IMG/VR virus record: IMGVR_UViG_2778261352_000001
Location: 1 to 64,000 of that record
Direction: 5' to 3' (one strand)
Length of the DNA: 64,000 nucleotides
Source of the DNA: a virus
Taxonomy: Duplodnaviria > Heunggongvirae > Uroviricota > Caudoviricetes
The notes beneath the pieces were generated by a model, which was not told the origin of the DNA, did not search any database, and was given only the letters and a program-made list of their open reading frames with translations. Shown here one piece after another: positions 2,089-7,776 of the stretch. The position numbers were made by a program, and so were the translations under genes. The stretch's first letter is position 1. Every line of letters begins with the position of its first letter.

Positions 2089-2720
2089 GTAAAACAACAC
2101 CTACTAAAGACAGTATTCGTGCAGAGTTTGAAGAGCTTGTCGAGAAAGATTCATTCTGGTCGAAGTTTGTCGGCTCTCAATTTGTCTCGATGCTGACATT
2201 GTTTATTACCCAGATTGTCTACAGGTGCTTTCAGTATGCCGATGCGGCGCTGGCTGAAGGCTTTATATCGACCGCGACGCGGCGTTCTTCTATCCTGGCA
2301 GCGGCAGAAACGAATAGTTACGTTGGTACCAAGCCAACACCGTCATCGGGGATGATTGAGATCACCGCCACAAGTGAAGATGCCCCAGCGGTAATCCCCA
2401 AAAACATGCCTTTAATATCTGACGACCAGTATCCTTACATGACTATGGATGTATGCAGGTTGGTTGACGGCACCGGTACGGTAGAAGTGGCACAGTTGGA
2501 AATCCAGGAGGTGACATATACCGTTAAGGGGGCAGTGGTGCCTTTGACCCCCTCAACGAACAATAGTTATTTCTCCTTAATCAGAAGTATGGTGACAGAA
2601 AGAACAGATGGCGCTGTTTACCCAAAAGTGATAGGTCTTGATGCTTCAAGAATTGTTCCAACTGCAAACGAAAACCGTCCTCGTAACATTGCGTTTAATT
2701 ACATCGTAAGGGCGGAATAA
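2085..2720 (+). CDS. putative tail fibre/tip protein with RPRNIAFNYIVRA C-terminus
   Basis: 211-aa ORF; last ~25 aa (DASRIVPTANENRPRNIAFNYIVRAE) near-identical to C-termini of the downstream cassettes; stop lies inside crossover site 1. Confidence 0.5.
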   Translation: MSKTTPTKDSIRAEFEELVEKDSFWSKFVGSQFVSMLTLFITQIVYRCFQYADAALAEGFISTATRRSSILAAAETNSYVGTKPTPSSGMIEITATSEDAPAVIPKNMPLISDDQYPYMTMDVCRLVDGTGTVEVAQLEIQEVTYTVKGAVVPLTPSTNNSYFSLIRSMVTERTDGAVYPKVIGLDASRIVPTANENRPRNIAFNYIVRAE

Positions 2721-2739
2721 AAACGTTGGTTTAGGAGAA
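2714..2739 (-). other. cix-like crossover site 1 (inverted relative to sites 2-8)
   Basis: reverse complement reads TTCTCCTAAACC-AA-CGTTTTTATTCC; resembles Din-family gix/cix sites. Confidence 0.6.
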
Positions 2740-2760
2740 GGCTCTGCGCTGCCCGTTGGT

Positions 2761-3189
2761 GTGCCTGTTCCGTGGCCCTCAGCCACACCACCAACGGGGT
2801 GGCTGAAATGTAACGGAGCAGCATTTTCTTCTGAAAAGTACCCAAATCTGGCAAAGGTTTACCCAACGTTAAAATTACCTGATTTACGCGGTGAGTTTAT
2901 CCGTGGTTGGGATGATGGGCGAGGTGTGGATGCGGGAAGGGGCATCTTAAGCATACAGGGGTGGTTAACAGGAAGTCATTATCATAATATTCGGTCATGG
3001 GACGCGTGGGATAACACGGTATTGGTGCCAAATGACAGAGGGGGGGATAGTCTGTTGTCGACAGATAACGCCGTCCAAGAAGGAGCGATTAATGGTAAAT
3101 TTACCAGTCAATACAGAACGGAGTTATCTGGGGGGAATGAAACCCGCCCACGTAACATTGCCTTCAATTATATTGTGAGAGCAGCATAA
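2761..3189 (+). CDS. tail-collar-domain tip cassette 1 (expression position)
   Basis: GTG start; N-terminal PVPWPSATPPTGWLKCNGAAFSSEKYP...LPDLRGEFIRGWDDGRG block, variable core, C-terminal ETRPRNIAFNYIVRAA. Confidence 0.6.
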   Translation: MPVPWPSATPPTGWLKCNGAAFSSEKYPNLAKVYPTLKLPDLRGEFIRGWDDGRGVDAGRGILSIQGWLTGSHYHNIRSWDAWDNTVLVPNDRGGDSLLSTDNAVQEGAINGKFTSQYRTELSGGNETRPRNIAFNYIVRAA

Positions 3190-3800
3190 TGGATAATGCG
3201 ATATTAAATAGCGAACTTATAGCCATACAGGCAGGAAACATTATCGTTTATAACTATGATGGTGGTAATCGGGAATATATTTCTGCATCAACTGAATATC
3301 TTGCTGTTGGCGTTGGTATTCCGGCAAATTCTTGTTTGGATGCTCCAGGCTCACATAAAGCAGGTTATGCGATTCTCCGTTCAGAGGATTTAAGTTCATG
3401 GGAGTATGTGCCAGATCATCGTGGCGAAACTGTCTATAGCATTGACACTGGGAATCCCGAAGAAATCACGGTGTTGGGTGACTATCCGGAAAATACAACC
3501 ACTATCGCCCCGCTAACACCATACGACAAATGGGATGGAGAGAAATGGGTGGTTGATACTGAGGCTCAACATAGTGCAGCTGTAGAGGCAGCAGAAACAA
3601 AACGTCAGTCATTGATTGATACTGCGATGGCTTCCATTAGTCTGATTCAGTTGAAATTACAGGCTGGACGGAAGTTGACACAGGCCGAAACCACACAGCT
3701 TAACTCCGTGCTAGATTATATAGACGAGCTGAACGCGATGGATTTAACCACGGCACCAGATCTCAACTGGCCTGAAAAACAACTTTCTGCAGCCAGTTGA
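3189..3800 (+). CDS. tail fibre assembly (Tfa/U-like) protein
   Basis: 203 aa; ATG overlaps cassette stop (TAATG); C-terminal region typical of Tfa chaperones (recognised from memory). Confidence 0.55.
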   Translation: MDNAILNSELIAIQAGNIIVYNYDGGNREYISASTEYLAVGVGIPANSCLDAPGSHKAGYAILRSEDLSSWEYVPDHRGETVYSIDTGNPEEITVLGDYPENTTTIAPLTPYDKWDGEKWVVDTEAQHSAAVEAAETKRQSLIDTAMASISLIQLKLQAGRKLTQAETTQLNSVLDYIDELNAMDLTTAPDLNWPEKQLSAAS

Positions 3801-3805
3801 TATAA

Positions 3806-4273
3806 TTAATCCGCCCTCACAATATAATTAAATGCAATATTACGAGGGCGGGTTTCTAAGCCAGCAGTACCTAAATTAGCTACGGACTGTTTATATGTTT
3901 TAAAGGTTCCATAATTAGGGGCTGGCAATCCTGCATCGCTTGTGTTCCCCCATCTGATAACTCCTGTATTACCACTAGTAGCCCATGCCTCGTCAAAGTA
4001 GAAATTAATTGAGCTGTCAGTTGCTACGGTTGATTTTGACGGTAATCCGTGAGCATGATCCTCCGTTGCATATCCTTGCCCACTTAAAATAGAGCGACCA
4101 GTGTCAATCCCTCGCCCATCATCCCAACCACGGATAAACTCACCGCGTAAATCAGGTAATTTTAACGTTGGGTAAACCTTTGCCAGATTTGGGTACTTTT
4201 CAGAAGAAAATGCTGCTCCGTTACATTTCAGCCACCCCGTTGGTGGTGTGGCTGAGGGCCACGGAACAGGCAC
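3806..4273 (-). CDS. tail-collar tip cassette 2
   Basis: GTG start; conserved N- and C-terminal blocks; convergent with tfa, 5 nt apart. Confidence 0.55.
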   Translation of the reverse strand: MPVPWPSATPPTGWLKCNGAAFSSEKYPNLAKVYPTLKLPDLRGEFIRGWDDGRGIDTGRSILSGQGYATEDHAHGLPSKSTVATDSSINFYFDEAWATSGNTGVIRWGNTSDAGLPAPNYGTFKTYKQSVANLGTAGLETRPRNIAFNYIVRAD

Positions 4274-4294
4274 ACCAACGGGCAGCGCAGAGCC

Positions 4295-4320
4295 TTCTCC
4301 TAAACCAACGTTTTCATGCT
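4295..4320 (+). other. cix-like crossover site 2
   Basis: TTCTCCTAAACC-AA-CGTTTTCATGCT; overlaps stop of cassette 3. Confidence 0.6.
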
Positions 4321-6238: not shown

Positions 6239-6663
6239 GCCCTTACGATATAATTAAAGGCAATATTACGAGGACGGTTTTCATTAGCTGTTGGCACGAC
6301 ACGAGAGGCGTCGAATCCAAGGTCATCGGTTTTGCCTATATCAGTTGTGTTATTCGGCATTCTCGCAGATCGTGTTCCTGCATCATAAAAAGCCCCTCTG
6401 ATTGCATCAAAAGACATGCCGGTCCCACCATCTGCGAACCCCTCAATATTTCTTATTGCATCCCCCTGTGAAGATAATAATTGTCGCCCGGCATCCACAC
6501 CACGCCCATCATCCCAGCCACGAATAAATTCACCGCGTAAATCAGGCAATTTATTTGTCGGGTAAGCCTTTGCCAGTTTTGGGTACTTTTCAGAAGAAAA
6601 TGCTGCACCATTGCATTTCAGCCAGTCCGTTGGTGGTGTTTCTAAGGGCCACGGAACGGGCAC
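6232..6663 (-). CDS. tail-collar tip cassette 7
   Basis: conserved blocks; C-terminal DASRVVPTANENRPRNIAFNYIVRAA matches C-terminus of 2085-2720. Confidence 0.5.
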   Translation of the reverse strand: MPVPWPLETPPTDWLKCNGAAFSSEKYPKLAKAYPTNKLPDLRGEFIRGWDDGRGVDAGRQLLSSQGDAIRNIEGFADGGTGMSFDAIRGAFYDAGTRSARMPNNTTDIGKTDDLGFDASRVVPTANENRPRNIAFNYIVRAA

Positions 6664-6684
6664 GCCAACGGGCAATGCTGAGCC

Positions 6685-6710
6685 TTCCCCCAAACCAACG
6701 TTTTCATGCT
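6685..6710 (+). other. cix-like crossover site 7
   Basis: TTCCCCCAAACC-AA-CGTTTTCATGCT. Confidence 0.6.
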
Positions 6711-7102
6711 GCCCTTACGATGTAATTAAACGCAATATTTCGAGGACGAATGGTTACATAATTAACCCCATCACCTCGTGAAGGCCCTGCAAATGAAAAA
6801 CGGGAAAAGCCTGGTTGGTTAGAAACAATTTGGTCATAGTTATTGATTGAATGACCAGACCCAATGTCGAAATTACCTCCGTAATGAGAAAAACTTGTAC
6901 CATCCTGCCCTGAAAGCAGGGTACGTCCCGCATCAATCCCGCGCCCATCATCCCAGCCACGGATAAATTCACCGCGTAAATCCGGTAATTTATTGGTGGG
7001 ATAAGCCCTTGCCAGTCTGGGATACATTTCAGAAGAAAATGCTGCTCCGTTACATTTCAGCCACCCCGTTGGCGGTGTTTCTAAGGGCCACGGAACGGGC
7101 AC
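6704..7102 (-). CDS. tail-collar tip cassette 8
   Basis: conserved blocks; variable core similar to cassette 6. Confidence 0.5.
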   Translation of the reverse strand: MPVPWPLETPPTGWLKCNGAAFSSEMYPRLARAYPTNKLPDLRGEFIRGWDDGRGIDAGRTLLSGQDGTSFSHYGGNFDIGSGHSINNYDQIVSNQPGFSRFSFAGPSRGDGVNYVTIRPRNIAFNYIVRAA

Positions 7103-7123
7103 GCCAACGGGCAATGCTGAGCC

Positions 7124-7149
7124 TTCCCCCAAACCAACGTTTTAGTCTT
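7124..7149 (+). other. cix-like crossover site 8
   Basis: TTCCCCCAAACC-AA-CGTTTTAGTCTT; last site before invertase gene. Confidence 0.55.
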
Positions 7150-7203
7150 AATCCCTACCTATACCAACGATGTATTTTTAACTAAACAAAGAGGTTGTTT
7201 TTC

Positions 7204-7776
7204 ATGCAAATTGGCTACATTCGTGTGTCAACAAATGACCAAAACACAGATTTACAAAGAAATGCACTGAACTGCGCAGGATGTGAACTGATTTTTGAAG
7301 ATAAAATAAGCGGAACAAAGTCAGCCAGACCAGGCTTGAAAAAGCTGCTCAGAACGTTATCAGAAGGAGATACGCTGGTTGTCTGGAAGCTGGATAGGCT
7401 TGGCAGAAGTATGAAACACCTTATCACGCTTATAGAGGAGTTGCGGGAAAAAGGTGTTAATTTCCGTAGTCTGACAGACAGTATTGACACATCAACACCC
7501 ATGGGGCGTTTCTTTTTTCACGTCATGGGGGCTTTAGCAGAAATGGAACGTGAACTAATTGTTGAGAGAACGCTGGCCGGACTGGCAGCTGCACGCGAAC
7601 AGGGACGCATTGGCGGACGTCGCCCGAAGTTGACAAAAGAACAACATGAGCAAATAGCGAGGTTGATCGAAAATGGCTACAGCAGGAAACAGTTGGCAAT
7701 TATTTACGATATCGGTGTATCGACGATTTATCGTTATCATCCTGTAGAGAAGCGCCAAACTCAATCTGAGCTGTAA
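7204..7776 (+). CDS. cin: site-specific DNA invertase, Cin/Gin/Hin/Pin (Din) family serine recombinase
   Basis: MQIGYIRVSTNDQNTDLQRNAL...DTLVVWKLDRLGRSMKHL...DSIDTSTPMGRFFFHVMGALAEMERELIVERT...RIGGRRPKLT near-identical to Cin/Gin; ATG 7204 with AAGAGG RBS. Confidence 0.9.
   Translation: MQIGYIRVSTNDQNTDLQRNALNCAGCELIFEDKISGTKSARPGLKKLLRTLSEGDTLVVWKLDRLGRSMKHLITLIEELREKGVNFRSLTDSIDTSTPMGRFFFHVMGALAEMERELIVERTLAGLAAAREQGRIGGRRPKLTKEQHEQIARLIENGYSRKQLAIIYDIGVSTIYRYHPVEKRQTQSEL

Follow-up and report, generated by a model that had tools for sequence, protein, structure and literature searches.

A probable Min-type multiple DNA-inversion array, orphaned by deletion, in a defective P1-like plasmid prophage

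We analyzed a 64,000-nucleotide stretch of DNA (hereafter the window), which is positions 1 to 64,000 of IMG/VR record IMGVR_UViG_2778261352_000001 and covers the first 64 kb of contig NOOP01000024.1 (65.2 kb), from the draft whole-genome shotgun (WGS) assembly GCA_002519675.1. Judging by its sequence, the element that carries the window is a defective P1-like plasmid prophage. The window is collinear with phage P1, in reversed direction, from pmgC through lox to bplB. Our subject is an array of tail-fiber cassettes that occupies the position of 16-R-S-U-U'-Sv'-cin in P1. The synteny runs pmgC…bplA, then the S region, then cin-lydC-lydA-lydB-hdf-darA, and the right flank is arranged as in P1, with lydC, lydA, lydB, hdf and darA following the invertase gene. 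Eight cassette open reading frames (ORFs), one on the plus strand and seven on the minus strand, lie together with a 203-codon tfa gene between a 211-codon ORF and a serine recombinase gene. A reading of this locus made from the sequence alone, without database searches, had proposed an invertase-driven array of alternative tail-fiber tips, and the comparisons reported here support that proposal.

All eight cassettes encode a common N-terminal block (PVPWP…TPPTGWLKCNGAAF…LPDLRGEFIRGWDDGRG), a divergent core of about 55-85 residues and RPRNIAFNYIVRA at the C-terminal end, so the shared ends described in the sequence-only reading are confirmed. The Pfam Collar profile (PF07484) is matched by eight of eight, and each cassette can be read without interruption in one frame, starting at the crossover (GLGEGSALPVGVPVPWP…) and running 144-169 codons to the stop. 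PHROG profiles align to the cassettes only over the last ~160 positions of long fiber families, for example phrog_523 (477-638 of 673), and c1 resembles the fiber tips of T4 gp12 and gp37. This first cassette (2728..3189, plus strand; Collar, 5e-15) comprises a collar domain, a variable head and the conserved C-terminus, and forms a fixed unit with the tail fiber assembly gene tfa (3189..3800, plus strand; Pfam Caudo_TAP, 2.7e-30; PHROG 105), whose ATG overlaps the c1 stop codon (TAATG). A PDB sequence search with Tfa gave no match. Cassette c2 (3806..4306, minus strand) is convergent with c1-tfa, and the c1-tfa-c2 block has no internal crossover site. The remaining cassettes are all on the minus strand: c3 (4314..4793), c4 (4801..5271), c5 (5279..5785), c6 (5793..6224), c7 (6232..6696) and c8 (6704..7135). 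Cassette c6 is a complete 144-residue segment when read from the crossover, with no ATG, GTG or TTG before approximately residue 52; because it has no such codon near its 5' end, it is listed as a 94-residue ORF (5793-6077).

Searching the window with the pattern CCTTCCCCYAAACCAACGTTTT at up to three mismatches returned exactly eight matches, of which that at 2720-2741 is on the minus strand and the other seven (starting at 4293, 4780, 5258, 5772, 6211, 6683 and 7122) are on the plus strand, and the same pattern found nothing in 100 shuffles. There were no further half-sites beyond these eight sites in the whole 64 kb. When aligned, all eight proved to be 26-bp sites with a 12-2-12 layout and the core TT (8/8), confirming the cix-like elements that the sequence-only reading had placed at the cassette junctions. 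The cassette-side half-site, GGTTT(A/G)G(G/A)(G/A)GAA, is well conserved and the opposite half, ..AT(A/G)AAAACG, is degenerate; the conserved half-site GGTTTAGGAGAA is comparable to GGTTTAAGAGAA of P1 cix. Site 1 (2714..2739, plus strand) belongs to the inter-cassette class and reads GGAATAAAAACG-TT-GGTTTAGGAGAA. It is the only site in that orientation, and the motif scan thereby upholds the earlier statement that site 1 is inverted relative to sites 2-8. Sites 2 through 7 (4295..4320, 4782..4807, 5260..5285, 5774..5799, 6213..6238 and 6685..6710) are on the minus strand, as is site 8 (7124..7149), which is of the terminal, invertase-proximal class and reads AAGACTAAAACG-TT-GGTTTGGGGGAA. The left half of site 8 is also found beside the invertase in every relative examined. 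The eight sites, oriented one versus seven, span 4.4 kb.

The recombinase gene (7204..7776, plus strand) reads away from the array and encodes a 190-residue serine DNA invertase of the Min/Cin/Gin/Hin 'Din' family with Resolvase and HTH_7 domains (PF00239, 2e-51; PF02796, 3.5e-15). Its product is identical to P1 Cin at 138 of 186 residues (74%) and to the invertases of plasmids pGD27-62 and pe1-39_A at 190 of 190. The Gin structures 4m6f/3uj3 match at E ~1e-92, and the catalytic serine is present (MQIGYIRVS9TN). Residues Q150/R153/L154 align with Q151/R154/L155 of Hin, the Gln/Arg/Leu triad that contacts Fis and is kept in Fis-dependent invertases, though not in resolvases (PMC3798978). The earlier assignment to the Cin family therefore holds. 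In a large homologue search, none of the homologues carried the name 'Min'; they were called only 'recombinase family protein' or 'Pin-like'. A presumed recombinational enhancer (sis-like, Fis-binding) at 7222..7293 is identical to the annotated P1 cin enhancer at 58 of 72 nucleotides, an identity that is not independent of coding conservation because the element sits inside the conserved coding 5' end of the invertase gene, and we treat it as weak evidence.

Between the invertase gene and lydC lies a pseudogene stub of a second Cin-like invertase (7908..8084, minus strand), recognizable by alignment to P1 cin over codons 1-59. It contains two in-frame stops, one of them at the codon for catalytic Ser9. 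We take the stub to correspond to psi-win of p15B, in which, according to Sandmeier et al. (1991), min is followed by a truncated 'psi-win'. Notes in the P1 GenBank record state that the P1 stretch corresponding to the stub matches p15B nucleotides 7147-7408 and that the P1 enhancer matches p15B nucleotides 6463-6533. Invertases resembling Min, and oriented opposite to P1 cin, have independently been reported in P1-like plasmids (PMC6906374); that of pJIE250-3 (MN510445) is given as 98.5% identical to Min.

The 211-codon ORF at the left edge of the array (2085..2720, plus strand) had been taken for a tip gene heading a tip operon. Comparison with P1 showed instead that it is an in-frame chimera, in which codons 1-148 of bplA (2085-2528), encoding a baseplate protein of the gp6/J-like kind and 99% identical to P1, are followed by the 3'-terminal ~63 codons (2529-2720) of a ninth cassette. 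PHROG profiles divide the product in the same way, with baseplate matches at residues 5-148 and a tail-collar-fiber C-terminus at residues ~129-211, and tblastn with BplA recovered only residues 1-150 from the window. Homology to P1 stops at 2526-2529, where the junction shows 3-4 bp of microhomology (GTTA). The bplA::cassette junction is also present in a second assembly (Logan, SRR3975563), and a 396-bp probe had no match spanning it in 72,556 plasmids and 5,426 complete E. coli genomes. We read it as a private decay event in a defective plasmid. A site-specific deletion was considered as its origin and rejected, since the breakpoint is not at a crossover site and has only the 3-4 bp of microhomology.

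Lost with this deletion are the rest of bplA, gene 16, R, the late promoter LPs upstream of R, the constant 5' part of the fiber gene S (Sc) and the Sc-proximal crossover site. Neither Sc, R, 16 nor the 3' part of bplA was found by blastn or tblastn elsewhere in the window, where a large inversion or translocation would have left them, and no Sc-proximal site was detected in the window at up to 5 mismatches. Because Sc and its crossover site are deleted, the array is orphaned, with no fiber gene to feed. Variable 3' segments are fused to a constant S part in relatives; no such fusion is found in the window, from which Sc is absent. The sequence-only reading had proposed that inversion between site 1 and any other site k places a different cassette behind the tip operon. 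The geometry does bring cassette k behind site 1, but no inversion can make a fusion there, because the reading frame of the bplA remnant closes within the half of site 1 that stays fixed, and the cassettes lie one reading frame away. What remains is a truncated derivative rather than a working Min region. It probably still shuffles, and we infer that its decay is recent.

Other parts of the contig are also reduced. A second deletion (window 1169-1732, junction 1168-1171) puts the tub start codon in frame with sit codon 954 through a 4-bp overlap, and removed tub, pmgB and the first ~2.9 kb of sit (tape-measure/transglycosylase); both tail-region deletions are in frame. In a third region (41668-47538), ~5.9 kb of small unannotatable ORFs plus a gene for a DUF551 protein (45308-46579, minus strand) replace 17 kb of P1. 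The missing P1 stretch (69.5-86.9 kb) includes ban, dbn, the baseplate and tail genes 5, 6, 24, 7, 25 and 26, and pmgL-S. repL is absent from the window. The element is a tail-less, probably non-inducible P1 derivative. Defective P1-like plasmids of comparable kind, pJIE250-3 and pTZ20_1P, have been described (PMC6906374).

The array contains two perfect repeats. An inverted repeat of 205 bp (2720-2924 / 4110-4314) takes in sites 1 and 2 plus the first ~190 nucleotides of c1 and c2, and a direct repeat of 117 bp (5677-5793 / 7027-7143) covers the 5' blocks of c5 and c8. Such perfect repeats suggest recent gene conversion or exchange. They also raise the question of an assembly artefact, in which the order or orientation of the cassettes, or the bplA::cassette junction itself, would reflect a short-read mis-join across repeats or a mixture of isomers. 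In favor of an artefact, the window derives from a draft WGS contig, a break in the Logan assembly of SRR3975563 falls right after site 1 (window ~2749), and the junction is unique among the public plasmids and genomes searched. However, the sequence around the junction is otherwise unique, two different assemblies contain the junction, its microhomology is a signature of genuine deletion, and the two other large deletions on the same contig point to real decay. The remaining repeat copies are mostly 73-92% identical and can thus be assembled, and the number and existence of sites and cassettes do not depend on their order. We consider an artefact improbable on this evidence. The orientation of 2925-4109 nevertheless rests on read pairing, and the particular isomer presented here is not secure, because the 205-bp inverted repeat lies in a short-read draft.

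Intact relatives indicate how the cassettes are used. In these plasmids, the constant 5' part of S continues in frame through the crossover site into a cassette (…DYLGLGEGSALPVGVPVPWP…; …DYLGLGEGSALPVG…). The S protein of pGD27-62, for example, is 516 residues long, reads …SVLDYLGLGEGSALPVGVPIPWP… / …KTSIQSVLDYLGLGEGSALPVGVPIPWPSATPPTGWLKCNG… across the site TTCTTGATTACC-TT-GGTTTAGGGGAA, and enters a cassette 97% identical to c2. The same Sc-proximal class of site, TTCTTGATTACC-TT-GGTTTAGGGGAA, also occurs in EC11 p1 and pe1-39_A (loci L003 and L004) and in several IMG/VR loci. We then compared codons over the 45 nucleotides that follow the crossover at 30 sites from the window and four plasmids. 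In the read-through frame, 10 of 11 variable codons were purely synonymous, versus none of nine in each of the other frames, and the read-through frame is under purifying selection. Potential start codons were not retained in the same sites: the TTG that would give 'MGEGSALP…' was TTA at 11 of 30, and the GTG that would give 'MPVPWP…' was GTA or GTC at 11 of 30. From the read-through in relatives, the synonymous pattern and the unconserved starts, we conclude on comparative grounds that the cassettes, like the Sv segments of P1 and Mu, are silent 3' parts of a gene and not whole ORFs.

This conclusion departs from the sequence-only reading, which held that whole ORFs are swapped. On such a model, every cassette would be an independently translated tip protein docking non-covalently on a constant fiber. 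Several features favor it. A TTG or GTG is found near the 5' end of seven of the eight cassettes, gene callers annotate separate 'phage tail protein' coding sequences, a purine run (GGAG/GGGGGA) lies within the site, and the left half-site does contain the stop codon of the upstream ORF, as had been pointed out. That stop codon falls within the left arm of inter-cassette sites because the preceding silent cassette ends there, and so it does not signify whole-ORF swapping. Moreover, c6 has no start codon at all near the crossover, the TTG and GTG are each lost at over a third of sites, the stretch upstream of the putative starts evolves as coding sequence in the read-through frame, the cassettes match solely the C-terminal ends of long fiber proteins, and intact relatives carry Sc joined in frame to a cassette. 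The comparative data already contradict independent translation, which we judge very unlikely.

We consider it likely, at a probability of roughly 85%, that a P1-like plasmid prophage here carries a multiple DNA-inversion array of the Min (p15B-like) type that has been orphaned by deletion. In intact elements, a serine invertase dependent on Fis and an enhancer would recombine 26-bp TT-core sites that lie in inverted orientation. One site would be located inside S at the end of Sc, and the fixed invertase-proximal site would face this fixed Sc-proximal site. The inter-cassette sites could take either orientation, and inversion between any oppositely oriented pair would permute the segments. 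Each cassette would be a promoterless and start-less 3' segment of about 145-170 codons that supplies a collar domain, a variable receptor-binding head and a conserved C-terminal strand. The cassette inverted behind Sc would become the C-terminus of the fiber while the remaining cassettes stay silent, and the c1-tfa-c2 block, having no internal site, would move as a unit. On this contig, a microhomology-mediated deletion joined bplA codon ~148 to a cassette tail. We infer inversion activity and Fis dependence of the array by analogy. In the two-cassette plasmid pGD27-62, the invertible segment consists entirely of the c1-tfa-c2 block, which there has the opposite orientation relative to the invertase compared with the window, as would be expected of inversion isomers. 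Site orientations also differ among related loci.

A number of points weigh against this interpretation. Inversion in this strain is predicted from a single short-read draft assembly. The identification with Min draws on architecture, on the notes in the P1 record and on published descriptions of p15B, and coding conservation confounds the assignment of the enhancer. Another contig of the draft genome could carry Sc, R and 16, in which case the strain would not be fiber-less, though the fusion at site 1 would still not be restored. Finally, the intact cassettes and invertase are as consistent with recent decay as with some continued use.

Arrays of this kind recur in public sequences. Plasmid pe1-39_A has ten sites and one tfa, and in MINF_1D plasmid 3 the invertase is adjoined by a run of seven consecutive cassettes. 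When IMG/VR was scanned with the inter-cassette site, 67 stretches were recovered, containing at most seven exact matches apiece, and one of these stretches holds a complete eight-site array from the terminal site to the Sc site. Across RefSeq and IMG/VR, arrays of 5-10 sites are common. Clustering of the variable cores sorted 209 cassettes from 70 loci into 26 types, and the eight cassettes of the window fall into eight different multi-member types with 8-29 members each. Given these array sizes and the recurrence of the cassettes elsewhere, an eight-cassette layout with a single tfa is ordinary for the Min-type family. The sequence-only reading had been unable to match the layout to a described system. 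It is the layout of p15B Min, and public P1-like plasmids commonly carry one-tfa arrays with 5-10 sites. We class the locus as a truncated further member of a known Min-type multiple-inversion family.

Some variation among these loci concerns tfa and the surroundings of the arrays. In other loci (L002, L004, L010-L076), an overlapping tfa (TAATG) follows 27 of 28 c1-type cassettes, tying the gene to one cassette type, and at least 25 other cassette types are without tfa. When a non-c1 cassette is fused to Sc, tfa can be antisense to S with no late promoter nearby. One Tfa might serve all cassettes via the shared C-terminus RPRNIAFNYIVRA. Insertion sequences (ISEc10, IS26) lie inside or at the edge of other arrays and split them, as in pe1-39_A (L004, 2845-5096) and MINF_1D plasmid 3 (L009, 9274-9978). 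In the latter, the sit-bplA block is inverted relative to the array.

The closest described counterpart is the Min system of p15B, studied by Sandmeier, Iida, Arber and colleagues in 1990-1992, which is said to have six sites and six alternative 3' ends. These ends are reportedly ~150 codons long and are joined to a constant 5' tail-fiber part, with a Din-family invertase adjacent and a truncated psi-win beside it. Both elements are P1-related plasmid prophages with the locus between the R/S and lyd genes, and both have more than two clustered sites that generate overlapping invertible segments. The window also resembles p15B in that its invertase reads away from the array and is adjoined by a truncated second invertase gene. 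In contrast to the six sites and six ends described for p15B, however, the window has eight sites and eight cassettes plus the remnant of a ninth, and its array has lost the constant S part and the Sc-proximal site.

The locus shares its genomic position and invertase family with the Cin/C-segment of P1 and, by family, with the Gin/G-segment of Mu. Its sites are 26 bp long and have the same good half-site as P1 cix, GGTTTAAGAGAA. As in P1 and Mu, the crossover lies inside S, 3' segments are exchanged and the enhancer would lie in the 5' end of the invertase gene. However, P1 and Mu have two sites, one invertible segment, two Sv-U pairs and an Sv of ~530 codons, whereas the window has eight sites, short collar-type cassettes unrelated to P1 Sv and a single tfa of the lambda Tfa type. 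The direction of the invertase gene is also opposite to that of P1 cin. A comparison of the cassettes with the P1 and Mu tips had been suggested; by tblastn, P1 Sv did not match the cassettes, and no similarity to P1 S, U or U' was found. With eight sites, one tfa and no similarity to these P1 proteins, a two-state C/G-segment switch was rejected.

Two further systems follow a similar logic. The three-site 'shufflon' of a P2-like prophage in enteropathogenic E. coli (EPEC) E2348/69 yields co-existing isomers that have been detected by sequencing and PCR (PMC4272514). Both this system and Pin/e14 resemble the window in combining an invertase with several partly homologous inverted repeats that give alternative fiber C-termini, but the EPEC shufflon has three sites and three C-termini and is part of a chromosomal P2-like prophage. 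The shufflon of R64 is alike in logic only, with many sites, permutable segments and alternative C-termini of the adhesin PilV. It uses the tyrosine recombinase Rci and 19-bp sfx sites, acts on a conjugative pilus gene and is not homologous to the array. A shufflon in the strict, R64 sense was rejected because the recombinase in the window is a serine resolvase/invertase.

We built a late-promoter motif, AARTKAYT-N5-TA-N3-T, from ten annotated P1 late promoters and found seven matches in the window versus 0.23 expected. The matches include 542-560, 8505-8523, 18148-18166, 21867-21885 and 58640-58658, among others, and correspond in position to LPsit, LPdar, LPlyz, LPpro and LP23; late transcription signals are kept despite the loss of many late genes. 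The match at 542..560 (plus strand), a homologue of LPsit, is the sole late promoter able to read towards the array, and the motif scan found no P1 late promoter within 2700-7200 that could drive tfa or the cassettes independently.

A very improbable alternative is that the orphan array has been kept for a new use, for example to make free receptor-binding proteins that block superinfecting phages or to supply co-resident phages or tailocins with cassettes. In its favor, the eight cassettes, tfa and the invertase have all stayed intact in a plasmid that can no longer form a tail, LPsit can still transcribe into c1-tfa, and a precedent exists in StfE2, an invertase-created chimeric fiber of the cryptic prophage e14 that blocks T2 adsorption (PMC12529663). 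Against it, the bplA::cassette junction is private to one strain, the invertase is 100% identical to those encoded by intact plasmids, which is better explained by very recent decay than by selection, no cassette has a translated 5' part joined to it, and the cassette start codons are not conserved. It is similarly improbable that the invertase still selects which cassette lies behind an LPsit-driven transcript of the bplA' remnant, and that weak internal start codons allow this cassette, with tfa, to be made as a free receptor-binding protein. If so, the free protein could hide surface receptors from superinfecting phages, in the manner of StfE2 of e14, or be passed to co-resident phages or tailocins.

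Under the preferred reading of an orphaned Min-type array, the copy in the window is a decay product and a phenotype is unlikely. P1-like phage-plasmids are important carriers of resistance genes, and they commonly hold Min-type arrays of 5-10 alternative fiber tips, for which we count at least 26 core types. Recent surveys of P1-like plasmids list the S-cin region merely as 'variable'. Silent 3' cassettes are readily mistaken for independent 'phage tail protein' genes by gene callers and readers alike, and short-read assemblies freeze one arbitrary isomer of such arrays. The significance of the locus is modest, and its value lies in these cautions for annotation and assembly and in the glimpse it gives of the size of the cassette pool.

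Two other regions of the window differ from P1. An ORF for a GNAT acetyltransferase (29469-30077, minus strand) is found at the position of P1 res/mod, and a gene for a YfjT-like secreted protein (57-533) adjoins pmgC at the position of P1 simABC. Both are usual variable regions of P1-like plasmids.

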